This document shows positions 16,910-64,000 of a stretch of DNA of 64,000 nt, one piece after another. Made by a program: the position numbers and the translations under genes. Below the pieces are notes generated by a model. It was not told the DNA's origin. It saw only the letters and a program-made list of their open reading frames with translations, and ran no database searches. Origin of the DNA: Mobula hypostoma (taxonomy: Eukaryota); assembly GCF_963921235.1 (NCBI RefSeq), contig NC_086097.1, positions 143,098,001-143,162,000 on the forward strand, given 5' to 3'. Each line of letters opens with the position of its first letter. Position 1 is the first letter of the stretch.

Positions 16910-17145
16910 AGATACATGAGATTCTGCAGATGCTGGAAATCTTGTGTGGAACACATACAAAATGCTGGAGGGAACTCAGCAGGTCAGGCAGCATCTACGG
17001 AAGGAAATAAACAGTCAAAATTTTGGGCTGAGACCTTTCATCAGGAGATCCTGTGAAGAGTCTTAGCGTGAAACATCAACTGTTCACCTTCCTCCCTATA
17101 CGCTGCCTGACCTACTCAGTCCTCCAGCATAGTGCGTATGTTGCC
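16910..17145. mobile_element. Penelope-derived fold-back element (two inverted pLTR arms)
   Basis: The left arm gcagatgctgg...tttcatcagga is joined by gat to an inverted arm cctgtgaagagtc...cctccagcat...gttgc. Confidence 0.8.
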
Positions 17146-17968
17146 AAAGTCATACTACATCACTGCTTACAAAGTGAAGGATTCCACTTACATTTCAACC
17201 AGCAATATCTAAAAGGTGTGACCTCACTCCTGTCCTCGCTGGAAGTTAAGGACACTTACAAATACGAGTCTAAACATTGAACATCAGTGGCACCATGTAG
17301 CTAGATGCACAATGTACAACTAATGTTCATGCCTCTAGGATAACTTGGGAATTCAATTCCCTCATCCTCCTTGGTCCCATGGTTAAGGAGGTCAATGATA
17401 GCACATTCACCATGATACTGACTGGGATCAGCTTACTCTGCGTAACCTGACTTCTGAAAGCCAAGCCTTTCTTCCTAAGGGTTGAACTTCAACCTCACCA
17501 ATTAGACAATCATACAATAAAAATAACTCATCCCTTTGAGAACACCATTCCATGTGTCTTGTAAGAGCTGTCTCTGCAGAATTCTCAAGAGTTCCCTCAC
17601 TGAACAAACCCAACTCTCCATTTTCCACCCCTTCTTTTAGAATGGGCCACTGGGATTAGGCTTCCTTATCAATAACTTGCCTCCAGACTGACCTGATAAC
17701 CTTTTGATCAAGACATTGAAAATCCCTGAGGCAGATTTTAATCAATTAAAATTATTAAGTCAAAAATGTCAATGTATTTTAAATACACTTATTATTAAGA
17801 GATGAAGTCATTATAAGGGAATTAAATAATCCAGGTCAGGAACATCATTTTGATTTATCAGATTGTGTGAGGTATGCTGACCATTGTTTGAAGGGGCAGA
17901 TCCACAGTATACTGAACCCTTCACTCAACATAACCATTGTTCCACCCTGGGCAATGTCGAGTGGAGGA

Positions 17969-18205
17969 TCATAAACATAAGAGATTCTGCAGATGGTAGC
18001 AATCCACAGCAGCACACATAGAATGCTGGAGAAACTTCGCAGGTCAGGCAGAATTTATGGAGAGGATAAAACAGTTGACATTTTGGGCCGAGATCTGATG
18101 AAAGGTCCTGACAAATAGTCTCAACCCACAACATTGACTATTTATTCCTCTCCATAGATGCTGCCTGACCTGCTGAGTTCCTCCAGCCTTTTGTGTGCGT
18201 TTCTG
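17969..18205. mobile_element. Penelope-derived fold-back element
   Basis: Inverted pLTR arms meet at gggccgagat-ctgatgaaag-gtcctgac. Confidence 0.8.
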
Positions 18206-18689: not shown

Positions 18690-21390
18690 TGAGAGATAGA
18701 GCACAGTAATGGGCCTTTAGAACTTAGAACATAGAAATTTAAAGCACATTACAGGCCTTTCGGCCCACAATTTTGTGCCGACCATGTAACCTACTCTAGA
18801 GACTGCCTAGAATTTCCCTAGCACATAGCTCTCTATTTTTCAAAGCTCCATGTATCTATCTAAGAGGCTCTTAAAAAACCCTGTTGTATCCTCTTCCATC
18901 ACTATCACTGGCAGTGCATTCCACGCACCCACCACTCTCTGTGTGGAAAAAGTTACCCCTGACACGCCCTCCATACCTATTTCCAAGCACCTTAAAACTA
19001 TGCCCCCTTGTGTTAGCCATTTCAGCCCTGGGAAAAAGCCTCTGGCTATCCACACGATCAATGCCCCTCATCATCTTATACACCTCTATCAGGTCACCTC
19101 TCATCCTCCGTTGCTCCAAGGAGAAAAGGCCAAGTACACTCAACCTATTCTCATAAGGTACGCCCTCCAATCCAGGCAACATATTTGTAAATTCCTCTGC
19201 ACTCTCTCGATACTATCCACATCCTTCCTGCAGTGAGGTGGCCAGAACTGAACACAGTACTCCAAGTGGGGTCTGACCAAGGTCTTATATAGCTGTAACA
19301 TTACCTCATTGCTTTTGAACTCAATCTAGGGTTGATGAAGGCCAACACACCATATGCCTTCTTAACAACACTGTCAACCGGTGCAGCAGCTTTGAGTGTC
19401 CTATCGACACAGACCCTAAGATCTCTCAGATTCTCCACACTGCCAAAAGTCTTACGTTTATATTATATTCTGTCTTCAAATTGGACCTTCCGAAATGAGC
19501 CACTTCACACTTACCTGGGTTGAAGTCCATCTGCCACTTCTCAGCCCAGTTCTGCATCCTATCGATGTTCTGCTGTAACCTCTGACAACCCAGAGGTTGT
19601 TAAAATCCACAACACTCCCAACCTTTGTGTCATCAGCAAGCTTACTAACCCACCCTTCTAATTCTTCATCCAGGTCATTTATAAAAATCACAAAGAGGAG
19701 GGGTCCCAGAACAGATCCCTGTGGAACACCACTGGTCACCAACCTCCATGCAGAATAGGAACCATCTACAACCACCTTTGCCTTCTGTGGGCAAACGAAT
19801 TTTGGATCCACAAAGCAAGGTCTCCTTGGATCCGATGCCTCATTACCTTCTGAAGAAGCCTTGCATGGTGAAACTTATCGAATACCTTACTGAAATCCAT
19901 ATAAACTACATCCACTGCTCTACCTTCATCAGTGTGTTTTGTTACATCCTCAAAGAAATCAATCAGGCTCGTAAGGCAAGACATGCCCTTGACAAAGCCA
20001 TACTGACTATCCCTAATCATATTATGTCTCTCCAAATGCTCAGAAATCCTGCCTCTCAGGATTTTCTCCAACAGCTTTCCCACCACTGAATTCAGACTCA
20101 CTGGTCTATAATTTCCTGGGTTATCTCTACTTACTTTCTTGAACAAGGGAACAACGTTTGCAACACTCCAATCCTCCGGTACTTCTCCCAACCCCATTGT
20201 TGATGCAAAGATTATCGCTAGAGGCTCAGCAATCTCCTCCCTCACCTCCCACAGTAGCCTGGGGTATATCTCATCTAGTCCCGATGACTTATCTAACTCC
20301 ATGCTTTTCAAAAGCTCCAGCACATCCTCTTTCTTAATGTCTGTATGCTCAAGCATTTCAGTCCGCTATAAGTCATCCCAACAACTGTCAAGGTCTTTTT
20401 CCCTGGTGAATACTGAAGCAAAGTATTCATTAAGTACCTCTGCTACCTCCTCCGACTCCATGCTCACGTTTCCACTATCACACCTGATCGGTCCTATTCT
20501 CACATGGCTCATCCTCTTGCTCTTCACATACTTGTAGAATGCCTTGGGGTTTTCCTTAATCCTGCTCACCAAGACCTTCTCATGGCCCCTTCTGGCTCTC
20601 CTAGTTCCTTTCTTAAGCTCCTTCCTAGCAACCTTGTATTTTTCTAGAGCTCCAACAGTAACTAGTTTCTTGAACCTTTCGTAAGCTTTTTTTTTCTTCT
20701 TAACTAGATTTTCTACATACTTTGTACACCATGGTTCTTTAACCCTACCATCATTTCCCTGCCTCAATAGACATACCTGTGCAGAACTCCATGCAAATTT
20801 TTCCTGAACATTTGCCACATTTATGCCGTGCATTTCACTGAGAACATCTGCTCCCAATTTATGCTCCCAAGTTCCTACCTAATAGCGTCATATTTCCCCC
20901 TAACCCAATTAAATGTTTCCCCAAATTGTCTGCTTCTATCCCTCTCCAGCACTATGGTGAAAGAGATAGAGTTGTGGTCACTACCTCCAAAATAATCTCC
21001 CACTGAGAGATCTGACACCTGACCAGGTTCATTTCCCAATACCAGATCAAGTACAGTCTCTTCTCTAGTAGGTTTATCTACATATTGTGTCAGGAAACCT
21101 TCCTGACCACACTTAACAAATTCCACCCCATCTAAACCCCTTGTGCTAAGGAGATGCTAATCAATATTAGGAAAGTTAAAATCTCCCTGGCCAAATGTTT
21201 CTGGCCTGGCGAACCCACGCCAGTCAGTTCCACCCATGTGACCAATTAACCTACTAACCTGTACATCTTTGGAATATGGGAGGAAATTGGAGCTCCTGGA
21301 GGAAACCCAGGTGGTCATGGGGAGAACATCCAAACTCCTTACAGACAGTGATAGAATTGAACCAGGTAACTGTTACACTACCATGTTGTC
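18690..21390 (-). mobile_element. tRNA-derived SINE split by the CR1 insertion (pieces ~18690-18717 and ~21200-21390)
   Basis: The SINE tail agatagagcacagtaatgggcctt continues after the CR1 as ctggcc...ttaacctactaacc...tttggaat.tgggaggaaa...ggggagaac..caaactcc. Confidence 0.65.
18718..21190 (-). mobile_element. CR1 LINE, 5'-truncated (~2.5 kb), endonuclease C-terminus to 3' tail
   Basis: ORFs 20875..21126, 20366..20857, 19766..20356 (PGNYRPVSL, QYGF, VDVVYMDFSK), 19476..19811 ([16 protein letters not shown]) and 18871..19182, with a (ttcta) tail. Confidence 0.95.
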
Positions 21391-22864: not shown

Positions 22865-25430
22865 GACTCAAGAGACAACAGATGCTGGAATTTGGAGCAA
22901 CAAACAAACTGCTGGAAGCAAATCGTCATCATTTTGGGTCAAGATCCTGCATCAGGGCTGAGTGTAGAGCAGTATAAAGAGGTGATATCGGGTGGAAAGG
23001 AAGTGCCTGGCAGGTGATGGGTGGAACCAGGTGAGGAGGGAGATGATGGACAAATGGAACGAAGTGGGGAGGGATGGGGTCAGGAAACAGCGGGGTGGGT
23101 GACAGGTAGAAACTGATAGTGGGGATGAAAGGGGGAAGATAGAGCCATGTGGGGCAGCTCCAACAGAATCCCACAGCCAGTCACACATTCATCTCACCAC
23201 CGCTTTCTGTTTTCCACAGGAACCGGTTTCTCTGTGACTTCCTGGTTCACTTGTCCCTTCCCAACCACACCTCCACCTCCCTAGAAACTTTCCCCTGCAA
23301 CCCTAGGCAATGCAATCTCCTCCCTCACCACCATCTAGAACCCAAACAGCTTCTCCAGCTCAGGCATAAATTCGTGAGCACCACCTTGTCTACTGCATTC
23401 GGTGCTGTTGATATGGACTCTTATATGTTGGCAAGACCAGGTGTAGACTGGACAACCATTTCATGGAAAACTTGTTCCCTGCCCACGATGGCCATCCTGA
23501 CCTCCCTGTTGCATACCATGTCAACTCCTCCTTCCATTCCCACATGAACCTGTCCATCCTTAGCCTTCTCCACAGCCATGGTGAGGTAAACACAAACTAA
23601 AAGAATACTCCACATCTTAGATTGTTTGCAACCTAATTCCATGAACATGGAATTTTCCAACTTCTGGTAACCCACAGCTCCTGTGCTTTTTTCTCTCTCC
23701 TTCTGGTCTCTCCTTGCCCCAAATCACCATCTTCATTCCACCCCCCCATATGGTTTCATCTGCCATCGTGCTTCCATTTGTCATACGTATTAATTATCAA
23801 ATTCCATAATCTGCAGTATCTTGTTTCCACTTATCACCTTCCAGCCTCTTGTACCCATCTCTACCCTCCCTCCCCCACCTAGCTCCATCCACCCCCATTA
23901 CATTCCTCCTCACCTAGTTCAAGTTCAAATGTATTGTCATTCAATCATATACATGTATACCAACAAACGAAACTATGTTCCTCCAGGACAAGATGCACAA
24001 CACAGTTCATATAACTCAAACATAATACAAAGGTAATATACATCTGGAGAAGAAGGATGCTTATGTGAGAATGCTGTTCTTGGACTCCAGTTCAGCATTC
24101 AACACCATAATTCCATCCGGACTCAACAAGAAGCTCAGAGACCTGCCTTGTGCAGCTGGAGCCTATCAGATCGCCAGCAGATGGTAAGAGTGGGCTCCCT
24201 CACTTCTGGCCCTCTGACCCTCAACACAGGTGCCCCTCAGGGCTGTGTCCTAAGCCCCCTCCTTTACGTTCTGTATACCCATGACTCTGTCGCCACCCCA
24301 CAGCTCCAATCTGCTAATTAAATTTGGTGACGACACTACACTGATTGGCCTAATCTCAAATAATAATGAGGTAGCCTACAGAGAAGAAGTCATCACCCTG
24401 ACACAGTGGTGTCAAGAAAACAATCTCTCCCTCAATGTCGCAAAAACAAAGGAGCTGGTTGTGGATTACAGGAGGAATGGAGACAGGCTAACCCCTATTG
24501 ACATCAATGGATCTGGGGTTGAGAGAGTGAACAGCTTTAAGTTCCTCAGCATACACATCACTGAGGATCTCACGTGGTCTGTACATATCAGCTGTGTGGT
24601 GAATAAAGCACAACAGCACCTCTTTCACCTCAGACGGCTGAAGAAATTTGGTATGGGCCCCCAAATCCTAAGAACATTCTACAGGGGCACAATCGAGAGC
24701 ATCCTGACTAGCTGCATCACTGCCTGGTGTGGGAATCTGTACTTCCTTCAATTGCAGGACTCTGCAGAGAGTAGTGTGGGCAGCCCAGCGTGTCTGTAGA
24801 TGTGAACTTCACACTATTCAGGACATTTAGAAAGACAGGTGTGTAAAAAGGGCCCGTAGGATCATTGGGAAACCGAGTCACCCCAACCACAATCTATTCC
24901 TGCTGCTACCATCGGGGAAATTGTACTGTAGCTTAAAAGCCAGGACCAACAGGCTCCGGGACAGCTTCTTCCACCAGGCCGTCAGACTGATTAATTCATG
25001 CTGACACAACTGTATTTCTATGTTATATTGAGTGTCCTGTTGTACATACTATTTATTACAAATTACTATAAATTGTACATTGCACATTTAGATGGAGACA
25101 TAACATTAAGATTTTTACTCCTCGTGTACATGAAGGATGCTAGTAATAACATCAATTCAATTACCACAAATAAATTAACAAATTATAAGGTACATTCATG
25201 ACCCAAGTCAAAACGCAATAACAGTATACATTACTTGATGGGACCTTGGGAGTTCTGTCGTCTCACAGCCAACCTCTTGCCTGCCAGCCCTTGCTTCACC
25301 CCTCCCCAACACCTATACTGGGCACTCTCAGTCCTAATTCAGGGTCCTGACCTAAAATGTCAATTCTTCATTTGCCTCCACAGATACTGCTTGACCTGCT
25401 GAGTTCCCCAGCAATGTGGTTTCTGATCTG
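22865..25430 (+). mobile_element. Penelope-like element (inverted 5' pLTR, GIY-YIG remnant, 3' pLTR), interrupted at ~23916-25255
   Basis: Remnants FPCNPRQC, VYCIRC..GLLYVGKTRCRL..HF.E and NMEFSNF. The 3' pLTR resumes at ~25256 and ends with ctgcttgacctgctgagttccccagca. Confidence 0.8.
24043..25160 (+). mobile_element. Rex1/Babar LINE 3' fragment (RT)
   Basis: [40 protein letters not shown] and LNVAKTKELVVDYRR (ORF 24281..24799), followed by a 3' UTR. Confidence 0.9.
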
Positions 25431-31559: not shown

Positions 31560-32380
31560 ATTAAAATGACTTTATTCCTTACATCCTTCAGATACCTGAG
31601 GATAAAAACCTTTACCTTACGTCTCCCTCTAAATGTGCAATCGTAGTAATTTATAATAATTTATAATAAATAGAACAGTCAATGCAATGTAGAATACACT
31701 CAAATCAACATGAGTTAATCAGTCTGATGACAAGAAACTGTCCTGGAGCCTGTTGGTCAGCTTTTAAGGTGCGGTACCATTTCCCAGATGATATCAGCTG
31801 GAATAGATTGTGGTTGGGGTGACTCGGGTTCCCAATGATCCTACAGACCCTTTTTACACACCTGTCCTTGTAAATGTCCTGAATCATGGGAAGTTCACAA
31901 CTACAGATGTGCTGGGCTGTCCGCACCACTCTCTGCAGGATCCTATGATCAAGGGAGGTACAGTTCCCATACCAGGCAGTGATGCAGCCAGTCAGGATGC
32001 TCTCAGTTGTTCCCCTATAGAAAGTTCTTAGGATTTGGGGGCCCATACCAAACTTCCTTGACCGTCTGAGGTGAAAGAGGCGCTGTTGTGCCTTTTTCAC
32101 CACACAACTAGTGTGTACAAACCAAGTGCGGTCCTCGGTGACGTGGATGCCGAGGAACTTAAAGCTGTTTACCCTCTCAGCCCCAGATCCATTGATGTCA
32201 ATAGGGGTTAGCCCATCTCCATTCCTCCTGTAATCCACAACCAGCTCCTTTGTTTTTGCAACATTGAGGGAGAGGTTGTTTTCTTGATACCACTGCGTCA
32301 GAGGGATGACTTCTTCCCTGTAGGCCAACTCGTTATTGTTTGAGATAATGCCAATCAATGTAGTGTCGTTAGCAAATTTG
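31560..32380 (-). mobile_element. Rex1/Babar LINE 3' fragment, same family as 24043-25160
   Basis: ORF 31705..32358 is near-identical in protein to 24281..24799, and the 3' UTR is similar. Confidence 0.92.
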
Positions 32381-32661
32381 GGACTTCTGTTTGGGACTTC
32401 TATTGCCAGAAGTATTTAAGACCATCTGTGTGAGTTACTTTGTCCAGCAAAGGTAACTGGAAAACATATGCAGATTATGTCATCTCGTAGAAAATAGTAT
32501 AAATTTCAGAAACATTGGGGATTGCTATGAATGATGAGGAGACTGATAGAAAGATGAGATTACAGAAAGAAGTCCACCAGTATATTTGTAGGACAGCAGG
32601 ACTCATACATTAGGCTAAGCTGTCTGTTTAGGAGAATGAGGGATGATTCCATTGAAACATG

Positions 32662-34529: not shown

Positions 34530-37500
34530 CGGACTATTCAGCAGGTCAGGAAGGACCTGCATAGAGAGCAGCAGAATTAGCTTGGGCTGGAGAATTGAAG
34601 TGACAGGCTGCTGACAGCTCATGGACAAAACGGAGGAGTCCTGTGGAGGGAACCACATCCTGAGCACTTACCGCAGTACACTACATTGGAAGTCGTACAA
34701 GCGAATTGCTGGTTCACCTTGGTAGGAATGCTTGGATCTATGGATGATGGAAAGGGAAGAGGCATTGTGGCAGGTATTGCCTCTCCTATGATTGCAGGGA
34801 ATGGTGCTATGAAAGGGGGAGTGAATGTTAGTGGACATGGAAGAGTGAACCATGGAACTGCAATGGAAACAGTCCCACAAAAGGCTGACAAAAAGAGAGA
34901 AGGGGATTGTTTAGCAGTGACAGAAGTTATGGCTGGTAATGCATTGAATGTGGAAGTAGGCGAGTATGTAAGAAAAGAACAAAGGAAACTAAAAGAATGA
35001 AAAATTCCTTACAGTAAGCAGGTCGGAGATGTAGTGAAGGTAACTCGGAGACTGTGGGCTTGCCGTGGATATTGATTGCTAACCCTGACCCTGAGATGGA
35101 GCTACAGGAGTTGGGAAATGAAAGCACAATTGGACCATGCTGAAGTGAAAGCAGTGTTACAAATTTCCAAATGTGTTTTGTTTCTCCAATTTTGAGGTGG
35201 TCACATTTTGAAAACCAAATGCAACATATTAGATTGGGTGATCAGTTTGCAGAACGCCTGCATTCAGTCCACATCCAGTAACTCTAACCTTCTCGTTGCC
35301 TACAGTTATGTCCTGTAACTCTAAAACATTAGACTAATTGAAAGGAAAACAAAGGGAGCCGGGAGTAAACTTGTGTACATTCTTAGATTTTCTTTAAGCA
35401 AGCCATGCGCGTACCACGAGGTGGTGTAATGATGTATGCAATTCACTTATTTTTACGTATAACCCATAATTAATTATTTAAACAAAATGAGTTTACAGTA
35501 TTACTCAAATACTACTGAAATACTAAATACACAACATTTCCTCCCTGCTTAGCTATAAACTCCATCTCAATATAGAATGTATCTCAACTGTATACATCGT
35601 ATACTATACGATACAACTACTACACAGACATCCACAGCATAGTAAATTTTTAAATTATCTCATTCAGTCCTGAAGATTTAATCGCTTTGGGCCTTTCCTG
35701 ACAAGGGGGATCACTCTGCTTGGCAGGTGAGACTTGTGGCTGTGAAACATTCTCAGGTTTTGGGGCCTCCTCCATGGTGGTTGTAGGAGTTGACTCTGGA
35801 ACTGCAGGAAATGGTTCTGCTTTTCCCAGCCTTTCTCTTTGGATCTACTACAGTCCTTGCTTCTCTCTTGGTCCAGGCTTCTTCCTCTCTCCCTATCCCT
35901 TTCTTGATCTGTATCATGGTCTTGTTCATGTTCTTTCTCTCTACCTCTTCTTTCCTTTTCAACTTCTTGTCTTCCTTTTTCTTGTTTACTTTTCCTCCTT
36001 CATAGGATTTACGTCTTGATTTTGGAAAAGTGCATTTAGTTCACTGGAGTATTCTCCTATTAATCCTTCTATTGCTCCCTTTATAATCTGATCTGTCCTC
36101 TTGGTTTCTTCGTTTTCAATATCCTCTGTTTTCGTACCTCCATTGACTCCTATCTTTTTGGCCTTCCATTTATCCAGCTGGGCTGTGCTCTTTGTATCTA
36201 CTTTTACAAGCACTTTTTTGTCTCCCCCTTGAAGTTCACACAATAACCTTTAATCAAACTAAGATGATTCTGTTTTTTTTTTATACTCACAAAAGTCAAA
36301 TGCTTGCAACTTTCCTTAAACTCCCTGAACTCCCTTCCAGCTTAAAACCAAGCCACATTTTGCAAGTAATTACCTGATCAGCATATCAGAGGCTTTCTCA
36401 GATATATTGCCTACAAAATTGTTATTGTTGGACCACTGCTTTTATCTCTTTAATGATTCCTCTGTGTAGCATGATCCTTCATTGTTACAATATACTTTCC
36501 AACCAGAGGCACAGAGGATGGCACCAACACCTTTTCACCTTCTGTTGAGCCACGGTTCATGGTTACATCATGGAGACAGTTGTGGCATCACCTAGTGCCT
36601 TTCTTCATTCTCTTTCAGTTGACTTTTGCAGGAGATGTGGCACATAACTGGGGGATGAATCTCCAATCAAGCTGTAGTTATCTCAGTCAATCACATCCTC
36701 ACAATGATGGCCCTCCTGATTGTACCACATACAAGCTCAATGTGGCTTGTTGGTAATTGTATTTCACTTTTACCAATGGCATTCTCAAAGGAATTACCTT
36801 TTCTCCAGAATAAGTTTAGCTGGATATCTACACGCTTCAGTTTAGTATCTTTGAAATGCAGTTCTTGTGGAATGACTGAAACAACTGAGCCAGTGTCCAA
36901 TTCCATTTTAATTAATTTACTGTTCACTTCTTGTTTAAGCCATATTGATGTCTATTGTTAGGTTTCATATTGTAAATCTCAGGGTTTCCCAGTCCTGTGT
37001 CCCTCTCATCATTATTAGATTTTTCATCAACAGCATGCAGATTCAAAAAGAGCACTAATCTGCAAATTTAATTTTTAATCTTCATCTCTTCCAGGGCAGT
37101 CCATTTATTTTTGTTTGCCCAAGATACTCCTTGTATGTGTTCTTCTTTGGGGCATTTTCTGCAAGTTTCACCTTTAAATCTGCATTAGTCTGGTGTATGT
37201 GAGGCCCTACCACAATGGTTATACAATTTGTTCAGCCAAGGTGGTTTTGGTTTAGATGCTGCATTTTTGTTTATGTTCATTGCTGCAACTCAATTGCATC
37301 TCTGTCTGCTGTTTCCATTGATTCAGCTACTTTATCTACTCCTTAAAATGTAAGTTGTGCTTCAGTTAGAGCTGTATTTGAATGCTTTCCTGTAAGATTC
37401 CACAAACTAAACAATATCTTAGTGCATTATTAAGCTCATTACCAAACTCAGAATGCTCAGAAAACTTCTTCATTTCAGCTACGTACGCTGAAATAGACTC

Positions 37501-41919: not shown

Positions 41920-42022
41920 TCAAACACAAGAGAGTGTGCAGATGCTGAAAATCCAGAGCAACCTTCATTTCCATAGATGTGACCTGACCTGCCGAGTTCC
42001 TCCAGCATTTTGTGTGTTTTAC
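41920..42022. mobile_element. Collapsed Penelope-derived fold-back remnant (centre deleted)
   Basis: gcagatgctgaaaatccagagcaac is joined to ccatagatg.gacctgacctgc.gagttcctccagcattttgtgtg. Confidence 0.7.
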
Positions 42023-42114
42023 TTCAATAATTTTATTGTTCTGCTTTAACACAATCTGACAACTTCATTATTACTGATAAAAGAAGTCAATTTTCAAATT
42101 GTTACAACAAAATT

Positions 42115-42510: not shown

Positions 42511-43894
42511 TTCTCAAATAGCATGAGATTTGAAATCCATTTTGCTTAGATAACTAAGAGGGGAATGTAATGGACAGAAGAGCATTTAAGGTAGGCTTAA
42601 TTCAGTCATTATCAAAGTGAATGGCAGGGAATGGCCTACTGCTTCCTATTTTCTGGTGTACAGTGTAATGGGTACGTTCCCATTTTAGCGACCAAGACTG
42701 CAATAACTAACCTTCTTGCAAAAAATTTCCACAAAGCATTGAATAAAAAGTATTTTTAAACCATTACTGGGAACATCTGAAAATGATGGACAGTGGAAAA
42801 AAAACCCAGCTGTTCCCACAAACCAGTGCCAAATTCAGAGTGTTGATCAGTGAGTTTGATGGCAAGTTCCGTGGCAAAGGGCCAGAAATATTGAAGTTAA
42901 GAAGTCAGACGTGCCTAAGCGGGGTCCCTGTGCACAGCACTGTTAAACTGAACTATTATGTGTGAGTAACAGTGGTCACTATTGGAACAAAAGTCTAACT
43001 TCCATGACAACAATCTAAAAAGGACCAATGAACAGTGTCTTTCCATCCTCTAACGGATGATGCTAGGAGGCCCATGTGACATCAGGAGCACACACTTACT
43101 TCTTGTCTGATTGAAATCCAATCAGGTTCGTAGCCATGTTTTGTTCTGGAAAAAGACCATTTTCAATCTTTTAGCACTGAAACAAAGAGGACTCTGCAAT
43201 TAACTTCTTTGGCCATTCAGCAGGGTAATATCTGAAACATGCAGTCAGAGGAAGAGAAGAAAGTACATGGGGTACATGTGAGAAAAACAAGTCACTCAGA
43301 GATAAAAGGTTCTTAAATTATCTCTGACATATGTTATGAAATTTGTTGTTTTGCAGCAGTACAATGCAATACATAAATTACTATATATACTATGTACTAC
43401 ATGGCCTTTCAACCTACAACATCCACGCTGACTATTTTGGCCTATTTGCCTGCATTTGGACTGTATCCTTCTATGCCTTATCTATACATCGTATGTGTCC
43501 AAATGCCTCTTAAGCATAATAATTGTACCTGACTCCACTATCTCCTCTGCAAGTGTGTTCCAGATATCAACTGAATAAAACTCACCTGAAATCTTCTTTA
43601 AATCTCTTACCTCTCGCTTTAAACCTCTTGATATTGATACCACTACCATGAGAAAAGAAATTGACTATCTTCACCCTCTCATAATCTTAGATACTCCAAG
43701 GAAAACAATCCCAGTCAGTCAATCTAATCTCTCTTGATAAGTAAAGTTCTTTAATCCAAAAAACTCCTGGAGAATGTACTCTCTCTGTGCATTCTCCTTT
43801 AATATGGTGAAGAACTCTGAATGCAGCTCAGTGTTTATTAAAGTTGCAACATCATGTCCTAACTCTTATATTCTCTGCCCTGACATTTGATGAC

Positions 43895-45190
43895 CAGAAG
43901 ACAAGAAGACATAGGAGCAAAATTAAGCTATTCAGCCCTTCAAATCTGCCCCACCATTCCATCATGGCTGATTTATTATCCCTCTCAACCTTATTCTCCT
44001 GTCTTCTTCCCATAATATTTGATGCCCTTACTAATGAAGAACCTAACAGCCTCCATTTTAAATATACCCACAGACTTGACCTCCACAGCTTCTGAGGCAA
44101 TGAATTCCACAGATTCACCACCCTCTGGCTAAACAAATTCCTCCTCATCTCTGTTCTAAAGGGATGTCCTTCTATTCTGAGGCTGTGCTCTCTGGTCCTG
44201 GAGTCCCCCACTACAGAAAATATCCTCTCCACATCCACTCTATCTAGGCCTTTCAATATCTGATAAGTTTCAATGAGATAGATAGATACTTTATTGATTC
44301 CAAAGGAAATTATGGTGTGTCACAGTAGCATTACACATGCACAGATATAAATATTAGAAGAGAGATAGAAAGAATAAAAAATAAGTTAACATAAACAGTC
44401 TAACAGGAGGAGATCATCACTTCCCTAGCTACAGGTTGACTCATTATAGAGCCTAATGGCCGAGGGTAAGAATGACCTCATACAGTGCTCTTTGGAACAG
44501 CGCTGTTATCTTAGTCAGAGATTCCCCTTCTTTCTTTTAAACTCCAGTGAGTACAGGCCCAGAGCCATCAAACACTCATGTGTTAACCCTTTCATTTCCA
44601 GAATAATTCTCATGAACCTCCTCTGGACCATCTCCAATGCCAGCACATCTTTTCTTAGATAAGGGCCCAAATCCTCTCACAATGCTTTATAAACCCTCAG
44701 CATTACATCCTTGCTTTTGTATTCTAGTCCTCTTGAAATGAATGATAACATTGCATTTGCCTTCCTCACCACTGACTCAACCTGCAAGTTAAACTTTAGG
44801 GCAAGTCCCTTTGCATCTTGAATTTTGAAATTTTCTCCCCATTTAAATACACTTTGTTCCTTCTACCAAACTGCATGATCATACACTTCACACCACTGTA
44901 TTCCATCTGCCACTCCCTTACCATTCCCCTAATCTCTCTCCGTCCTTCTGCAGATTCCTTGCTTCCCCAACACTACCTGGCCCTTCACCTATCTTCAAAT
45001 AATCTGCAAATTTGGCCACAAAGCCATCGTATTTGTCATCTAAGTCATTCACATATAATATGAAAGGACGTAATCCCAACACTGACCCCCGTAGAACACC
45101 ACTAGTCACCGGTAGCCAACCAGAAAAGGCTCTCTTTATTCCCACTCTTTGCCTCCTGTCAGTCAGCCAGCCAATCTTCTATCCTTGCTG
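43895..45190 (-). mobile_element. CR1 LINE 3' portion (an older CR1 remnant adjoins at ~43400-43880)
   Basis: ORFs 44918..45145 (VTSGV..GSVLG...KFAD) and 43852..44256. Confidence 0.9.
44280..44517 (-). mobile_element. Rex1-type LINE 3' tip with (TATC)n tail nested in the CR1
   Basis: TSD GAGAT (44275-44279 and 44518-44522). The minus strand encodes RSFLPSAIRLYN. Confidence 0.75.
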
Positions 45191-46779: not shown

Positions 46780-46986
46780 TAAAATGCTCAAGGAATGCAG
46801 CAGCTGGGGTGGCATTTTTGGAAGGAAATAAATAGCCAATGCGTCAGGACAAGGCCTGATGACAGAGTCTCAGCACAAAACGTTGACTGTTTATTTCCCT
46901 CCATAGATGCTGTCTAACCTGCTGAGTATCTCTCGTGGTTTGTGTGTTGTTCTAGATTTCCAGTAGCTGCAGAATCTCTTGTATCT
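46780..46986. mobile_element. Penelope-derived fold-back element, old
   Basis: Inverted arms meet at gcgtcaggacaaggcctgatgacagagtctc. The right arm carries the long tail ttccagtagctgcagaatctcttgt. Confidence 0.75.
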
Positions 46987-48988
46987 TCACCATCTCCAAT
47001 TTCACCCCATTCCCTCTTGGGATAACTTGCATATCTGTTTGGATATGCAAAAGATCCCATGGCACCATTCAAAGACTAGGAAGCTCTTCCAATGATGATG
47101 GGTCAATACTGCCATGAATCAACACCATCATAGTGTTTAGAATTTCTGATCATTTACTTATTAGCTGCTTGAAGGATGTTGCTTTGAAAATGACAAAATT
47201 ACTCTCAAGTTTGTCCCTAAAATAGTGATTGCAATTTAAATGTAAATGTAATCTGTTGCTCAGGTTCTAATATAGCCATGCTCAATACAGATATAACAAG
47301 AATGTTAATTATATAAATCTATTAACACATCCCAAGGCATTTCACAGGGGGGGGGGGGGTAATATATCAAAAATTGACACCAGGCCAAAGGAAGAAATAT
47401 TAGATGGGTGGGGGACAAGTTTTGAGCAGCATTAAGGAGAGGTAGTGCAGAATATTGGGGAAGAAAGTCCAGAGTTTATGGCCGTAAACACTTTACCCTC
47501 AGTTACATGAAATGGAAGCGCACATTGATAATGGGCTACACCAGGAGCTAAGTGATTTCATGGAGGTGATTCATGTAGAGAGGAGGAAGTTCTAATAAAA
47601 CGAGTAGTTGGCTATGGGAATCAGGAGATGATGACTACTGAGGATAAGTATCTCAAATACAAAGTATTGCTAAATAATCAAATTCTAAAGGCATGGCATT
47701 GGGTGAAAAGGATTGTCAGCTGGCTAAGTTACAAGAACCCCTCAAGCTTCTAATAGTCCTTTCAAAATAATAGCTCCACTTGACTTTCTCTTCTTCATTA
47801 TGCCGCTCTGCAAATGATACTATGGCAGCTTTTATAACCACCCAAGAGTGCAACAGAACTTCCTTTAACATCTTGCCTTGAAGATGGCACCTGAGTAACT
47901 ACAGAATTCCCTCATTACTGCAGTTAAGTATCAAGCAATATTGTAGAACCATATCCATTTTTTTTTCCAAGTCAGGATATCTCCTTGTACAATAAAACAG
48001 CCATGGTTGCATTTCCTTGCTCTTTCTCCAAAACCCTGCCAAATTTATCTTCAGTGTTTATCCAATTTCCCCTTTGAAAATGCTAACTTAATATTCTGAA
48101 TCATAACTATTTGCTGCATAAACTGGATAGATTTCCAGTTAATTTAAAGCTGACCTCTGGCCTTTGACTTCTCTGCAAATAAGGATATTTTCTATTTACC
48201 CTTTCCAACTCAGCTTCATTTGTCCACATTTATTAAGCCTTATAGCCAATATATTATTTTATCATATGCACTGCCGGATTCGCCTTCCACGCAAGTGTCC
48301 GTTGTGAGAGTTGTGTTATTTATTGCTCATCTGTCTGACATCATCACATTTTAGAGATTGAAAACAATCTCTCCCTTCCATCTCTGTCCATGCAACAATG
48401 ATCAGGTTCAGAGGAGAGTGAAGGCACGTGTCAGTGAAGACAGACTCAAGCAAACCAAGATGGCAAATAGATTGAACGTTTCATTTGCAGTTTGGAGGTT
48501 AACTACAACCTTTGGTGCACTACCACTCCATTCAGTGAAGGTCCACAGGTGATTAGCTCAATGTGGGATTGTGCAAGCATCCTCAGTAACTTCAGAAAGA
48601 GAGGGAGATAAATGGAAATAGCTATCTTTCCTGTTCCTCTTTGTTCTAGAATATAGAATGTCTAGGATCAATTCTTGCTACAGTGCCCAGCGTAGCCAAA
48701 CAGCTATCTTACACATTTAAATCTGAAGAATGGATCCTTTAACGAAGATGGGGTTGCTCACTCTATTGAACTGTATACCAGATTAGAAAACTGTTAGTTG
48801 GGGAAAAATATGGAATATTGTTGTCTAGGGTGCAATGCGATTGAAGTATTTAAGATTATGTGACAGGATAGACTGGGATGTTTTAAAACGCAAACAACAG
48901 GAATTCTGCAGATGCTGGAAATTCAAGCAACACACATCAAAGTTGCTGGTGAACACAGCAGGCCAGGCAGCATCTCTAGGAAGAGGTA

Positions 48989-49026
48989 CAGTCGACGTTT
49001 CAGGCCGAGACCCTTCGTCAGGACTG
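48989..49026 (-). ncRNA. Minimal type-I hammerhead ribozyme, intact
   Basis: 5'-CAGUC CUGACGA AGG-GUCUCGG-CCU GAAA CG UC^GACUG-3'. It has the CUGANGA and GAAA boxes, stem II AGG/CCU, a perfect stem I CAGUC/GACUG, a GUC triplet, and palindromic ACGU in place of helix III. Confidence 0.85.
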
Positions 49027-50190
49027 AACTGGAGTTCAGGCAGGCATGAACTTCAGATTGCCTCTGCCATTGATCTTGCCGGCTCCAACACCTCAGGGCA
49101 TATTCGAAACCCGGACTCCAGCAATGACCATGGACACTTTCAAAGCGATTGCACAACCACCAACTGCGACTCCAGCCTCGAACTCCAGGCCGGGTCTTTA
49201 TGTGCTGCTATTGTGACTCCCATCTCCCCTTCCCCCACCAATACTCTGCAATCCCATCTCCCTCAGATCCCATCGTCAGCTCCTGGGTACTCAGAGGCTC
49301 CATCTTCCTCTCACTACAACCCTCCCCACCCCACTGACACCCCCAGCCTCCCCCCCGATCCCAGCTCTCATCCGTGCTGGGTCTTCACCATCCCCTTCGA
49401 CCTTCAACTGTCAGAGGCAGAACGCTCTGTCCTCAGTAAGGGCCTCACCCCTGTCCCCCTTTGCCCACACCTCAGTGAGTTCCGTGTTCTTCCGCCGTCT
49501 CCGTCTCCGAGCCTACTTCTTCGGCAAGGACTCTTCCACCCCCACTGATGACCCCTTCTCCCGTCTTCAATCCTCCTTTTCTTCATGGACACCCCGCTCT
49601 GGTCTTCTGCCTGCTCTGGATCTCTTTATCGCTAATTGCCGACGGGACATCAACCGTCTCGACTTCACCGCACCTTGTTCCCATTCCAACCTCACTCCTT
49701 TGGAACGCTGTGCTCTCCACTCCCTCCGCACTAATCCTAACCTTATTATTAAACCCGCCGATAAGGGGGGGTGCTGTTGTAGTCTGGCGGACTGACCTCT
49801 ACCTTGCCGAGGCACAGCGACAACTCGCTGATACCTCCTCTTATTTACCCCTCGATCATGACCCCACGAAGGAGCACCAGGCCATTGTCTCCCACACCAT
49901 CACCGACTTTATCCACTCAGGGGATCTCCCATCCACTGCTACCAACCTTATAGTTCCCACACCCCGCACTTCCCGTTTCTACCTCCTACCCAAGATCCAC
50001 AAACCTGCCTGTCCTGGCAGACCTATTGTCTCAGCTTGCTCCTGCCCCACTGGACTCATTTCTGCATACCTCGACACAGTTTTATTCCCCCTTGTTCAAT
50101 CCCTTCCTACCTATGATCGTGACACTTCTCACGCTCTTAAACTTTTCGATGATTTTAAGTTCCCTGGCCTCCACCGCTTCATTTTCACCT

Positions 50191-50227
50191 AGTCCTGACG
50201 AAGGGTCTCGGCCTGAAACGTCAACTG
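50191..50227 (+). ncRNA. Minimal type-I hammerhead ribozyme, core intact, one stem-I mismatch
   Basis: AGUC CUGACGA AGGGUCUCGGCCU GAAA CG UC^AACUG, with G to A just 3' of the cleavage site (CpG-type change). Confidence 0.75.
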
Positions 50228-53168
50228 TACCTCTTCCCAGAGATGCTGCCTGGCCTGCTGCGTTCACCAGCAACGTTGATGTGTGTTGCTGGGATGTTTT
50301 AACAAGGGTTTAACTTTTATCTATGACCCTTGTTATAATGGGTAAACCCAAGTGATTCAGATTAATACTGTAAGCCTGAGAATCTTCACAGAGATTTGAG
50401 AGGCTACAGATTCACTTCTCAGTTTAGTCATTGGTGAACTATGTCATATTCAATATTGAGTTGGATGGATTGATGGAATGTCATGTTTTGGGAAAAGGGA
50501 AAATAATTTGAATGAAGGTTGCATAGTTGCTGAGACAAATAGCCTTTTTCAATATTTTGACTTCTAAGTGTTCGTTTTCTAATTGAGAAAATACTTGTGG
50601 TGAAGTCAGGATTAACTCTGGTGATATGTTACCATCATCTACAGGCTGGAATCTTTTATGAAAATGGTCAATAGTCATTTTTGTAAAGCATCAATGGCTG
50701 GGGCTGCAAATAAAAAAAGCATCTCAGAGATGCTGAGAAATTAAGCCATGGAAAAATAAAATGGGTTGCATTTTTGACCTAATGCACCATGAAGTGGTAC
50801 TGAACGCCTTACATGTCAGCTGATTTTGAAGGCTCTGGCAGCCAAAGGCATTATCTGTGATCACTGCCATTTTGTGCATGACAGTGTCAGCTATGACTCA
50901 GTCAGAAGCAAGAACATAATCTGGAGCAGCACTGAAGGTTGATGATACACCGAGATTAGACTTTTAGATGTACAGTACGTGTATATTTACATGTACACAT
51001 GATTAGCACCAGACCGGGAATGTAGTGTATTTTGGCCCGTATGTGTCGGTCTGTCAATCAGCATCACCTGAGAAAGATAAGCTGGCTATCATCACAATAT
51101 TGTTTATGAGACTATGCTGTGTCAAAATGGCTGCTGCCTCTTCTAAATAAGCAGAGCAGCTAGACTTTGTATTTCAAAATATCAATCTGCTGGAGGAACT
51201 GTAGCATGTGTAGAGGCAAAAGGATGGTTGACATTTTGGATCAAGTAATCATCCCTTTGCAACCACAGAAGTTACCTGACCTACTGAGTCTCTCTGATGG
51301 TTTTATTTTGTTTCTAGTTTGTTCCACATTCCAGCATCTGCTATTTCTTGTGTCTCTATTGGAAGCATCTCATCCTTGGGATAAAAAGGTGGTGCAAATT
51401 TTCAGGGTTTTCATTGGTTAAAAAGAATCAGATATTTAAAAAGAATTTTGGGTGCAGTGAGGCTGATGTCCTTGCTACCCAGGGTGGTATAGATGCACTC
51501 CATGACTGATCTCAAGCATTGCAGAGCAGTGCTGAGCAGGCACTTTGATAAGCCAGCACCAGTTCATTATCTGCCAGTTCAAGTCAGTGTTAAAGATCTC
51601 GTGGCTGCATTCGGGATATAGAGACACAGTGAATTTCAGAGGCCACAGGATGAGTGGTTCAGTAGTCGAGAACTATTAAACCAGAGAAATTCTACAACTG
51701 TAGTTCAAAAAGATGAATTCAGGTTTAAAACCCAGGAAGCAAAAAAGCTGGCAATAAGTAAAGACAGTTGTCAGATAAAAAGAACTCATCTTGTTTAGTG
51801 CCATCTTCTGTGGAAGGATTGTATCTTGTCTAATTGGCCTCTGAAATGCCAAACTATATGGTATTCCAGGGAAAGGTTGCCTTCTTAGAGCACCTGTGTA
51901 CGGGACACCCATATCCCAGGAAAAATCAATTGCAAATAATAGCCCCTATGTAGCTCCACAGATTAACTCGTCAACTGTCTGTCACATACTGCTGGTTGTT
52001 ACGGAGAACAAATGCTGTACTTCCTTATAGACCAACTGTTAACAGCTATTCAGTAGGTGAAAAGCTTCAGGACAAGAGTGAAAGGGTCTCAGACATACGC
52101 AAATACAAACACAGAACTATTTGTGCCATTTACCATCAAAAGATCACATCGCGATGATTAGAACAGTTTAAAAGCAGGTACCAAAAGTAGCTTCAGTTTA
52201 AAGACTGATGTGTATACACTCCAAAAATAAAAATGGCCAGCTTTTAAAAAAGTCTATTCATGATCCATTCTTGAGCAGTAAAAATAACTGGCTTATCTCC
52301 ACACAATTGAAGTTTTAATACTTCCTGAAAAGCACAAGAATAAAAACAACTGAATTTACAATTTCATTACCTCGGATGCTGGCAAAAGAGGCTGAGAAAT
52401 GGATAAGTCCATTATCTGCCCACTTGCAGCAGCTCTCCTGAAGAATGTGTGTAGAGGGAGGCAATTGGTAACAGTGATGAGTGATGGCTGTTTGCACAGT
52501 GGGCTCTCGACAGGCTCCCTGCGACACAGGACTCCATGATATACTGAACTCCAAGCAGATCAGACAAGCCAGGAAGTGGCAAGTTACACAGACAAGACAG
52601 CTATATGCTTCCTCTCTCTCTCTCGCTCTTTGTGCTAATCTCTATCTTGTTGAATCAACAAGCTTATGAAGGATGTGGCAAATCGTTTTGTGCCCTGTCT
52701 ACAAACAAAACAAAAGTAATAGATATATTCTTCCCTTTCTGAAACCATTCTAACATGCCAGAATGGCCTGAATTTGTGGACAGAGTATCCTTACAGACAG
52801 TATTATAGTTGAACCCAGTGCAATCTTGCACAGGGACACAAGGCAAAATATAAAATCTCTATTAGCACTTTAGTTCAAATCACAATTCTATTTGATGAGC
52901 AACCTTGCTCGTGGCTACTTCACTATAACAAGACAACAGAATGCATTGCAGAACTTACACTTCTCTGATCAGGCTCTTAATAGCTCCTGAGTAATTTCAG
53001 AGCTATCATCTCTACCACCAAGGAGAGAGCAGCAGTACAACGGGAACAGCATCACTTCAATGTTCTCTAAAAGTCTCACACCATCTTGTCTTGTATGCAT
53101 CCAATCAATAGTAACAGCATTCCAGCATTCCAGTTCTTCAAGTGGCATCTATGTGAGAGCCTCCTTTT

Positions 53169-59334: not shown

Positions 59335-60420
59335 ACTGCTAGAAGAATTCAGTGGGTCAAAAAGCATCTGAAGGGGAAAAGGGATGATTGACAGTTTGGG
59401 TCAAGATCCTGCATGAGGACTAATGGAAGACAGTATGCACACATAAGTGAGAAATGAGACAGAGGCCGGAGAGAGATAGATGGAAATAGATGAGGTGGGG
59501 GGCGGGGGGAGGGAGAATAATATGTAGGTAGAGCCAGGTGAGGGGCAAGGAGAGGAACAAATTAGTTTTGAGACAGAGGTGACAACAGCAAAGAGGAAAT
59601 AAGAAATAAAATCTTCCAGATATTTGAAACCGATGGAGAAGGCTTGAAAAAGAGGCTGTTATGTGACAGATTGACCAGATGAAGAATAGATGGGTAGATG
59701 AAACCAGGTGAAGCATCAAGATAAAGGGATGGCTTTCTTTCAGATGGTAAGGGGAGTAGTTGGTGGTATGAGAGTCAATAGATTTGTAGCCGTTATCAGT
59801 GGTTGCTTGCCTTTTGAGATGGCAGAAGTAGTCAAGATAAACTTCAGGCCAGAGTGGAAGTGGTACTTAAAATGGTAAAGGTGACAAGTTCTGCACAAGT
59901 GTTGGTAGAAACACCAATGCAGTCATCACTGTAGCAGAGAAAGATTTGGGGCTATTTGTCAGAGTAGGTTTGGAATAAGGGCCATTATTTATAAGCCATC
60001 AAAAGGACAGATATAACTGGGGTCATACAGATGTCTGTGGCAACACATTTGATTTGTGGAAAGGGGGAGGAATTGAAAGAGAATTTAATGAGGTTGATGA
60101 GAGATTTAGTAGAGGGAACTGGAAGATGTTAAGATGTTGGAAGACACGAGAGATGTCCTTGAAGGAGAGGGGAAGAGACTGAACAAGGAAAGACAGGATA
60201 GAATCAAGTTATTAAGTCATAACTTTGATGTGGCAAGGACAGGCAGAAAGAACAGGTCCACCGGACAGTCCTCCTGTGGGTCTTAGATAAAAACTGGCAG
60301 AGGGTGTTTAGGGCAGTATCAGATCGGATGCTGTGGAAAGGAGATCCCTGATGTGATTAAATTTGTAATTTATACAATGCCCTCGTGGTCATAGGAGTCA
60401 TGGTCTTGGAGAAGGCAAGA
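59335..60420 (-). mobile_element. Old Penelope-like element: pLTR plus RT remnants
   Basis: Reverse pLTR at ~59340-59420. Minus-strand remnants resemble VA....M.PSY.C.F.G and Y.DDCIG. Confidence 0.6.
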
Positions 60421-61613
60421 AGAAGCATTCATGATCCACCACTACAAGATGTTGGAAAGTACTGCAAGAGTATTTTAGCCAGAAGGACTGCAGCTGTTCA
60501 AGGTAGTGGCTCAACAGATAATTGAATTCCTAACACCTAATGTGGTCTAGAATCTTAAGTTTAACACCTGAAATTGAAATTGAAAAAAGAATGATATATC
60601 AACTTGGTATGACTTCAATGTACCCGATAAAAATAAACACAGCAAATCCTGACACACTGCAACCTTTGAAATTGGTTACAATTTGGAGCATCATTGATTA
60701 ATTAGGTGACACAAGATTTGGATAAATTTGCTCCTTAAGTTGAATGAAGTATCCATTTTATCAAAGACGCCAATTATTACCTGCCTCACCACCAGCAACT
60801 ATCTCTACCCTCTTATCTACCAGGTCCCTGCTATTCAAATCAAAAACTTTCGTATCTACCTTTTCCCAGCTCTGATGAAGGGCCACCAACATCTAAGTTT
60901 CTTTTGTATGCCGCCTGACATACTAAGTATTTGCAAAATGTTTCCATTTTATTTCACATTTCCAGCATTCACTAAAATCTACCAATGCTTTACTAAGAAC
61001 CTTCCTTCTTATCATATGTAGAAACACCTACTGATGATTGTGTTCTTCATTTGCATTTGTAGCTCAGAGGATGCATTATTTTACAGTCACGCAGTAATTC
61101 AGGTATGGGCAGACACGTGGCACAAAGTGCAGACAACAATCACCTTCGACAGCATTCCGGCATCTTACCCTTCACATTCAAAAGTATTACAATTTCTCCA
61201 GCTTTAACTTATTTGGCTGGGATGATCGTTTATAACTGGAGATTCAAGCAGACTAGCAATATGGAAATTCTGAGTGCTTGGACAGGTAAGAGGCTGGGTA
61301 TCCTGACAGGATGCTTTCTCTCCAATTTGCCAAAGTCTCTTCACCATATGCACATGTCAAGAGAGTGATGTGTAGCCTATTTTGCACTTTATTCTGGAAT
61401 ATTACATAACTCACAGTCTTGGAACACCAAGGAAACGTCTGGATTTGTGAACTTTAAAGCATGATATATTCAAGGATACAATAAAATGACACAGTTTAAG
61501 ATAGTGACCCCACAGACATTAAACTACAAGAAACAAGCCAAGATATACATCCCTCATTCCATCTATTGACAAAAAGGACAAGAGGTACAGGCCCAAAGGA
61601 ACACCTTCTTTTG

Positions 61614-61843
61614 GAGCAACACACATCAAAGTTGCTGGTGAACGCAGCAGGCCAGGCAGCATCTCTAGGAAGAGGTACAGTTGACATTTCAGGCCGAGAC
61701 CCTTCCTCAGGACTGGCAAAGGGTCTCGGCCTGAAACGTCGACTATACCTCTTTCCTAGAGATGCTGCCTGGCCTGCTGCGTTCACCAGCAATTTTGAAG
61801 TGTGTTGCTTGAAATTCCAGCATCTGCAGAATTCCTCGTGTTT
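61614..61843. mobile_element. Young 230-bp Penelope-derived fold-back element
   Basis: 11-bp TSD ACCTTCTTTTG (61603-61613 and 61844-61854). Two ~95-bp inverted arms are nearly identical to the arms of 48887-50290. No coding sequence. Confidence 0.93.
61678..61715 (-). ncRNA. Minimal hammerhead motif, partly mutated
   Basis: CAGUC CUGAGGA AGGGUCUCGGCCU GAAA UG UC^AACUG. The boxes are retained, but the ACGU palindrome and first stem-I pair are altered. Confidence 0.6.
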
Positions 61844-62102
61844 ACCTTCTTTTGCAAGTTCAGTCCTGTGAAAGAATCTAGTACCTTTCACCCTCTGTAT
61901 CTGAATCTAAGTCTAGGAACTCTGTATCCGATAGTACTGTGGGAACACCTTCACCAAAAGGACTGCAGTGATTCAAGAAAGCAGTTTGTCATCACATTCA
62001 AGTGCAATTTGAAATCAGTAATAAATGTTGGCCTTAGCTGGTGTCAACTATGAATAAGAAATTTGTGTACAAAGACAAATTTAGATTTAGTGAAAATGTA
62101 AT

Positions 62103-62159
62103 GAATCTGTTCTCCTTACACTTGAACCCAATATGGTCAAGTGTAAGGAGAACAGATTC
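62103..62159. repeat. Perfect 23-bp inverted repeat with an 11-nt spacer
   Basis: gaatctgttctccttacacttga (62103-62125) and tcaagtgtaaggagaacagattc (62137-62159). Confidence 0.95.
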
Positions 62160-62944
62160 TCACATCTTCACACAAATAGACATTCATGCTATTATTTTAG
62201 TAAAAGCTTAAGTGGGCACCAATGTCAGCATGGACTGTTTGGGCTGAATTGCCTGAATATATGATGTATTGCTCCATGACCTCATAACTCTGCACCTCCC
62301 TAAAGCCTTGGGATTCTTCAAAAATTATGACATCCTGAGCTGAAAGCAATTCTACAGCTGAGGCAATTAGTGCCTTACATTTTAAAATATTACTTTACAC
62401 CTTGTGTTGAGAATTGTATGGTACTGTTTATAAAGCTTAGAAATGTCTACCTTTATTTTAAAAAAGAAAGCTTTTCAAATGGCCCTGCCACATTGAAAGC
62501 ATTCCACATGAAAGCCATGAAGCCTCTCGGTTCCTATCTCCCTTTAAAATGGAACCGTGTAGATTGTAAATTGCTGCCACTATTTCTTCTTAACAAATTG
62601 CATCAGTTTGTACATTTCACTTTCTATCCAAACATATATTTAACCAGTGCCACGGCCTCCAAAATCTGTTACCATTGTCCTCATTGTTTATAACAGTTCT
62701 GAGTTAAGTGTCATCTACAAACTTTGAGATTACTCTCTGTTTACCAAAGTCAAGGTCATTCACGCACACTAACAAGAATTGCCCTAGTACTTGCATACTT
62801 CCTTCTTCTGAGAAAGTTTCATTTACGACAATCTTCTGCTTTCTGTAATAACCTCATTTTTTTCATCCACTCTCCCTTTAATGACAAGCCTTTAAACTCT
62901 GTCAATTGCTGTCTTCTGTGGGTATTCTGGAAATCTAGAACTAA

Positions 62945-63800
62945 AACACAAAATGTAAAAAATAAACTTGGGTCAGGCAGCAATCACGGAAAGGGAAACA
63001 GTTAACATTTCAGGTCTGAAGCTTTTCACCAGAAATATTTTTTTTAAAAATTACTCTCAGTAACAGAAGAGAAGGGATAGGGCGAAGTGTGAAACCAGGG
63101 GCTTTTCTCAAATGGAATGAATATTGGGCCAGTTATGCTAAGGTTAAGCTTCATTTGAGTAAATGTATTGCTAACGTTGTACTGTACAGTTTCAGTATTG
63201 TGGAGCAGTTGCACAGTTTAAATGTGAAAAAAAGAGGAGACAAAAGAAAAAAAGATTGCAGGCTAAATGGGCAGTTGTCGTGAAAACAGAAAGAGCAAGC
63301 TAGCTAAAGTTCAAAAATTCAATATCGCGTCCTACGGGCTGCAAGGTGCCCTGATGGAAGGCAAGGTGTTACTCCTTAAACTTGCCTAGGACCTACGTTG
63401 TCACAGTGTCAAAAATCACAGCTAAAAAGTTGGAGTGGGATGGTGAATCAAAGCTCAGGATTGTTCCTAAGAATGGAGGACAGGCACTCCGCAAAATAAT
63501 CACTGAGTTGCATTCAATTTCTCAAATGCAAAGCAGAGCACATTTTGAACACTAAATAGAATATATTTGCAAGAACTGCAAGTAAATTGCTGCCTCATCT
63601 AGGAAAACATTTTGGGTGCCCGAATGAAGGGGAGGGGAAATCGGAGAAAGGACAGGTGTAGCACCTCCCAGTGAAGTGCCAAAGGATGAGTAGATGAGAT
63701 GAGTGCAGGCAGTTATCAAAGAACCAATTTCTTCTAAATGCTTAAAGGGAAGGAGAAGAAAATACATATCTGGTGGTGGAATCTAATTGGACCTAGTGGA
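62945..63800 (-). mobile_element. Old Penelope-like element remnants (pLTR and GIY-YIG C-terminus)
   Basis: Reverse pLTR at ~62950-63035. The minus strand near 63310-63370 reads HLAFHQGTLQPVGRDIEFLNF. Confidence 0.6.
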
Positions 63801-63819
63801 AGTTGCAAAGACTGATCAG

Positions 63820-64000
63820 TTGAGTGCAGAGACTTAGACAAACTTCTATAATGTACTGTATATTGACTTGTTGAATCATGGCATGGTATGGAAACACCAA
63901 TGCCCTTGCATGGGAAACCCAACAAGTAGTAGTGATTATAGCCCAGTGCAACATGGGTAAATCCCTCCCTACCATTGAGTATATCCACATAGAGCATTGT
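63820..64000 (+). mobile_element. Rex1/Babar fragment running off the window
   Basis: AWYGNTNA...AQ...GKSLPTIE remnant. Confidence 0.65.

Follow-up and report, generated by a model that had tools for sequence, protein, structure and literature searches.

Introduction

Insertions of Penelope-like elements (PLEs) typically combine an adjacent inverted, 5'-truncated copy with a one-sided tail of 30-40 bp, while the integration step is described as still undefined (PMC8557442). In the rotifer Adineta vaga, inverted pLTRs are accompanied by TSDs (target-site duplications) of 8-10 bp, a tail and palindromes at the junction (PMC3846280). For a PLE of the anole, in vitro work showed that both target strands are nicked and extended, that ribozyme cleavage is dispensable, and that reverse transcription starts at two internal sites bounding the tail, homology to the target not being required (PMC11167929). 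Metazoan PLEs carry minimal hammerhead motifs; in Schistosoma, dual minimal hammerheads lie on opposite strands about 100-700 bp apart (PMC4209133). Non-LTR retrozymes, in turn, consist of head-to-tail tandem units with an intact hammerhead in consecutive units (bioRxiv 10.64898/2026.07.22.740005).

Here, we analysed a fold-back insertion of 230 bp within a window of 64,000 nucleotides (the whole stretch of Mobula hypostoma DNA under study) and compared it with these systems. The fold-back represents the head-to-head arrangement already published for PLEs, in a minimal form. Like the head-to-head EN+ PLEs Pen2a_Av and Pen2_Av, it has a partner arm that is inverted and 5'-truncated, and only one of its ends carries a tail; the 30-40 bp given for the tail of those elements (PMC3846280, PMC8557442) are matched by the 34-nt tail found here (PMC8557442, PMC11167929). 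It also shares with them a TSD of about 10 bp and a short palindrome or overlap at the junction (PMC3846280). In contrast to both elements, it lacks an ORF between the arms, measures only 230 bp, resides in a vertebrate host and belongs to a very abundant family. Taken as a whole, the evidence makes it probable that the fold-back consists of two head-to-head PLE terminal pieces; it likely arose through a single insertion and is likely immobile in itself. Literature searches, whose coverage lay mostly outside subscription papers and Repbase/Dfam, retrieved neither a named ORF-free PLE fold-back or MITE-like family nor a report of a chondrichthyan PLE hammerhead.

Results

The insertion and its orthologous site

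Positions within the arms were numbered from the C of the CTGAnGA box of the hammerhead, which is +1. The locus comprises the following features:

61603-61613, plus strand: left TSD, 11 bp, ACCTTCTTTTG; exact repeat, present as a single copy at the empty site of run X8
61614-61843: fold-back insertion, 230 bp, bounded by exact 11-bp duplications
61615-61714, minus strand: tailless arm, PLE terminal region from -4 (or -5 if 61715 is counted) to +96
61679-61714, minus strand: minimal type-I hammerhead motif, complete, changed at +25 (helix III) and +29 (the helix-I pair beside the cut site)
61708-61715: head-to-head junction CAG-GA-CTG, with 2-3 nt of microhomology; perfect 3-bp inverted repeat with a 2-nt loop
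61713-61843, plus strand: tailed arm, spanning +1 to about +130 of the PLE terminal region
61713-61744, plus strand: broken hammerhead remnant, without the 5' strand of helix I and with two core positions changed (CTGGCAA)
61810-61843, plus strand: 34-nt PLE tail, on the tailed arm only and outside the inverted repeat by alignment
61844-61854, plus strand: right TSD, 11 bp, ACCTTCTTTTG; exact repeat

A first-pass annotation, made from the sequence alone, had proposed a 230-bp insert with an 11-bp TSD, and this was borne out both by the exact repeats and by a clean empty site in the contig of a relative. Among 200,000 random position pairs from within the window (241 bp apart, 3 nt slop), an exact 11-mer repeat was found for 20. 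In run X8 (organism D), record 25, a contig of 2044 nt, matched the window at 61305-61602 and then at 61844-62277, the two segments meeting at consecutive record positions 1103 and 1104 with one TSD copy; its flanks differed from the window by about 5.8%. No contig of runs X5 and X7 bridged the insertion site.

The check for orthologous empty sites suggested in the same annotation thereby gave one bridged site, that of X8, which was empty and held no longer insert. This argues against the alternative that the fold-back started out longer, resembling the two-armed insertion at 48.9-50.3 kb described below, and later lost its middle by microhomology-mediated deletion. Such a longer form with the same arms is indeed present in the window, the junction shows microhomology, and inverted repeats generally favour deletion. 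For such a deletion, nevertheless, both breakpoints would need to coincide with the edge of hammerhead helix I, where the arms of other insertions also stop, and we regard this reading as the least probable of those weighed here, and as very improbable in itself.

Arms, tail and junction

The insert had been described as being made only of inverted PLE terminal repeats. While its PLE origin and the inversion of its arms were upheld, the arms proved unequal, and the 34-nt tail has no counterpart within the repeat. The inverted arms are 94% and 91% complementary and differ from each other by 8 substitutions and 1 indel over 96 positions. In the alignment, the tailless arm (61615-61714) was identical at 97 of 101 positions to the tailed arm of a sister insertion (48887-49032), and base 61614 is an untemplated or mutated base. 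Comparison with both sister arms showed no derived change (0 in the alignment) common to the two focal arms, which fits independent decay since insertion. Both outer arm ends are family-wide: in run X1, loose ends fell at 61615 in 322 contigs and at 61843 in 493.

The arms were also thought to overlap at CTG. The junction indeed reads CAG-GA-CTG as described, but the overlap may amount to only 2 nt, depending on the source base at -5: with C at this position it is 3 nt (CTG), with T it is 2 nt (CT), and the sister arm at 50190 has T at position -5. The 2-nt loop of the junction is part of the tailless arm. Both inner arm ends coincide with the 5' edge of helix I and precede the cut site, predicted to follow +28 (hammerhead numbering), by about 30 nt. 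As the arms extend about 30 nt beyond the cut site, ribozyme cleavage was rejected as the cause of the junction.

The perfect 3-bp inverted repeat with its 2-nt loop could also point to a one-off insertion by self-priming at CAG-nn-CTG, perhaps on an antisense or extrachromosomal template, followed by EN-mediated integration that left one tail. Self-priming on an antisense template is the favoured reading of palindromic head-to-head junctions in PMC3846280, and PMC8557442 ascribes the tail to EN-mediated resolution. However, because the loop lies on the tailless arm, the tail cannot be the product of a single target-primed cDNA simply snapping back, and a target-primed first strand is not copyable into the tailed arm. 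Neither the other junctions of the window nor the RT fragment between the sister arms shows such symmetry, and the ends of the tail match the RT start sites determined in vitro (PMC11167929). We therefore consider self-priming unlikely and favour two separately primed pieces, as set out below.

Hammerhead motifs and the predicted hairpin

Hammerhead motifs were recognised by pattern and alignment; Rfam returned no hammerhead match to the insert at E values up to 1, and the motif pattern matched 0 stretches when viral, metagenome and prokaryote contigs were scanned. The focal motifs are of the kind described for minimal hammerheads of metazoan PLEs, that is, type I with a palindromic helix III that has no loop and with an additional base ahead of helix II (PMC4209133). 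In contrast to the hammerheads of that report, the focal motifs abut, one being truncated and mutated in its core and the other damaged. The earlier view of two ribozyme-bearing arms consequently had to be narrowed, as a complete motif was found on the minus arm only and is itself damaged, whereas the plus arm reads CTGGCAA and lacks the 5' strand of helix I.

The hairpin shape was confirmed by folding of both strands. Predicted energies were -177.6 kcal/mol (plus strand) and -183.5 kcal/mol (minus strand), with z-scores of -19 and -22, respectively, and 0 of 200 shuffles were as stable; about 90 of the hairpin pairs start in the left arm. In an approximate calculation, forcing the helices of the minus-arm hammerhead cost about 46 kcal/mol relative to the long hairpin. 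Owing to the changes in the motifs together with this competition, both hammerheads are predicted to be inactive: each is damaged, and the hairpin would enclose it. The sole Rfam matches were to miRNA precursors, below threshold and due to the hairpin shape, and we discarded the interpretation as a miRNA. Intronic dsRNA from the focal hairpin is a possibility and, if transcribed, such hairpins could be a large source of long dsRNA in cartilaginous fishes.

The insert further resembles non-LTR (animal) retrozymes in being non-coding and PLE-derived, in its type-I hammerhead and in its similar size (bioRxiv 10.64898/2026.07.22.740005). Classification as a non-LTR retrozyme was rejected, since the arms are inverted rather than tandem and no intact hammerhead is present.

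A sister insertion and the identity of the PLE family

The same window contains a second insertion of the same subfamily:

48873-48886 and 50289-50302: TSD of the sister insertion, 14 bp
48887-50288: sister insertion; an inverted arm with a tail and an arm without one enclose about 1.16 kb of RT coding sequence from a PLE (plus strand)
48887-49032, minus strand: tailed sister arm
49033-50190, plus strand: PLE RT fragment between the sister arms, identified by protein homology
50191-50288, plus strand: tailless sister arm

This sister insertion (48873-50302) is young. Its arms are those of the fold-back and flank the RT fragment at 49033-50190, which bears out the PLE origin proposed for the focal insert. 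The RT fragment had 573 homologous proteins, the best of them 89% identical and named from Mobula hypostoma. One relative, P0035 (57% identical), combines RVT_1 and GIY-YIG domains with a CX4CxxC linker. Elements with the same arms are hence linked to a PLE-type RT; GIY-YIG was seen in relatives, and the subfamily's own EN is absent from the window. According to PMC8557442, a CX2-5CxxC-type linker before GIY-YIG occurs in Neptune and Nematis and not in Penelope/Poseidon. Judged by the linker of P0035, a motif also present in Nematis, the family may be Neptune-type; in an older PLE copy of the window the linker before GIY-YIG is decayed.

At the helix-I edge, the tailless sister arm passes without intervening bases into sequence from midway through the RT coding region, which suggests a template jump after a stop at this edge. 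The PLE family is very abundant: the window holds about 22 arm-like matches (three weak ones left out), and 78,847 X1 contigs matched the stretch, a figure that is not a copy number. Taken together, the focal locus shows the features of an EN+ PLE insertion, namely a link to PLE RT, an inverted partner with one tail, a TSD with an empty site, and a minimal hammerhead motif.

MITEs carry terminal inverted repeats at both ends and have a TSD of fixed length. The fold-back is like them in being small, non-coding, hairpin-forming and flanked by a TSD. A MITE was rejected nonetheless: the repeat is not terminal on one side, where the 34-nt tail is located, the TSD measures 11 bp here and 14 bp in the sister insertion, and the sequence is derived from a retroelement.

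Older decayed PLE coding fragments (linker plus GIY-YIG region, RT region) were noted at 22875-23830, 34600-35010 (judged by eye only), 59815-60361 and 63727-63834.

Other two-armed insertions and their junctions

Six two-armed insertions were found in the window, at 16.9, 18.0, 41.9, 46.8, 48.9-50.3 and 61.6 kb. In addition to the focal and the sister insertion, these comprise four fold-back PLE insertions of greater age, no two of which share a junction:

16910-17150: older fold-back PLE insertion
17973-18204: older fold-back PLE insertion
41921-42030: older fold-back PLE insertion
46780-46984: older fold-back PLE insertion

The junctions were all different (6/6). A tailed arm was paired with a tailless one in five of the six insertions; in the sixth, one arm is tailed and decay obscures the state of the other. 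Two tails were found in none of them (0/6). Eight of the 12 arms start between -5 and +1, the starts having been set partly by eye (48.9 kb, 61.7 kb and decayed arms; three of the starts). A TSD search for the four older insertions and two wider pairings gave nothing convincing. Between the arms of the fold-back at 18.0 kb, the hammerhead box is present once more as a short additional copy.

In the read data, 271 distinct joints were recovered over 4 runs. No high-copy joint was present among the 15 best-supported of these 271; the 13 X1 joints among the 15 occurred in 1-6 contigs at a depth of 58-144, a single copy corresponding to about 15. Some joints reached 4-10 times single-copy depth. 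As the sides of the joints were short (18-33 letters) and the likeness threshold was 82, some of them may be misalignments. Among the contigs listed, seven cross the junction region in near register, two of them gap-free, at single-copy depth and with 9-18 letters different, and near-register junctions are present at other loci in two species.

These near-register contigs fit a breakpoint hot spot; an old small amplification fits them as well. Since the 5' ends of arms pile up at the helix-I edge, similar junctions can arise independently, and with such a hot spot identical junctions alone are no proof of amplification, for which shared derived mutations are needed. The pile of loose ends at 61714 mixes true breakpoints with natural upstream continuation and is thus no measure of the hot spot. 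Clustering of junctions, the check put forward earlier, therefore yielded different junctions and low-copy joints at the scale of the window and the read data, but as a test it is confounded by the pile-up at the helix-I edge.

The first-pass annotation had left two options, a minimal retrozyme-like unit that amplifies and a recurrent integration product. The second fits the evidence, the six window junctions all being different. The first found no support, given these differing junctions, the low-copy joints, the head-to-head arms and the lack of an intact hammerhead. More broadly, the 230-bp fold-back could be conceived of as a mobile non-coding unit, a retro-mobilised counterpart of a MITE, whose fixed-junction hairpin RNA is recopied in trans by the PLE protein. 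The near-register junctions in two species and the joints of elevated depth would suit such a unit, and pLTR sequences suffice for trans mobilisation in rotifer PLEs (PMC3846280). Yet not only the junction data speak against it: in RNA form, all of it except the tail would be sequestered in a hairpin of about -180 kcal/mol, keeping the tailless end fixed would call for an RNA 5' end precisely at that point, and tandem units and an intact ribozyme are absent. We consider a mobile unit highly improbable; the fold-back is likely a single truncated insertion rather than a member of a self-spreading family.

A model for the insertion

For this single insertion we propose that the GIY-YIG endonuclease of the PLE introduced a nick into each strand, at a spacing of about 11 bp, and that the RT used both 3' ends to prime a cDNA. 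One cDNA would have begun at the tail start (+130) and the other at the tailless start (+96). The template would have been uncleaved RNA. Synthesis of both cDNAs would have ended after 100-130 nt at the helix-I edge, a preferred stop that may be an RNA 5' end, a splice junction or a structural block. The two cDNAs would then have annealed by their 3' ends via 2-3 nt of microhomology, followed by fill-in, and the arms would have decayed independently after insertion. In L1 twin priming, as Ostertag and Kazazian reportedly set out in 2001, both nicked strands prime cDNA, the products are joined at microhomology and an inversion results within one TSD. The part inverted in L1 is a different upstream part of one RNA, whereas both focal arms copy the same region.

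In line with the proposed model, the tail of PAc (Poseidon of Anolis carolinensis) is bounded by two RT start sites situated about 100-135 nt 3' of the hammerhead box, and both strands are extended with uncleaved RNA being used (PMC11167929). The focal family differs in that it may be Neptune-type, and a fold-back product is not modelled in PMC11167929. In the same account the RT start site is alike on both strands in vitro; with no strand difference in RT start, the rule of one tail per insertion is not explained there.

With regard to the preferred stop, a YAG at -5 to -3 following a stretch of 60-90% pyrimidines was found at 9 of 11 hammerhead cores outside fold-back junctions:

3652, 6790, 22955, 25334, 38677, 49021, 50195, 59417 and 60872: YAG-preceded hammerhead boxes

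This arrangement resembles a splice acceptor, and it coincides with the breakpoint hot spot. In Drosophila virilis Penelope, the end of the intron is the 5' end of helix I (PMC4209133). Since the AG belongs to helix I as well and the copies share ancestry, the likeness to a splice acceptor is only a lead.

The locus itself is of little weight, being one of very many such insertions and in decay. Considered as a class, insertions with two arms and no ORF document the PLE integration step cleanly, and both the single tail per insertion and the preferred stop at the helix-I edge are testable in the existing in vitro system.

Host context and other features of the window

In 241 reading-frame segments, no host-gene domain was found at the curated Pfam cut-off, and matches were weak only; short exons would escape this search. 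The intronic position given in the first-pass annotation found no confirmation among these segments. The segments comprised 135 of 135 with at least 55 aa in 40-64 kb and 106 of 143 with at least 68 aa in 0-40 kb, where the 37 left out by eye lay mainly in or beside LINE, LTR and PLE remnants. LINE-like reverse-transcriptase fragments, recognised by eye from translations, are located at 19476-20878, 24254-24799, 31705-32415 and 43852-44319, and a decayed LTR-retrotransposon-like remnant with weak integrase matches at 8458-10614. A perfect 23-bp inverted repeat with an 11-nt loop is present at 62103-62159, in a region covered by contigs of all four runs.
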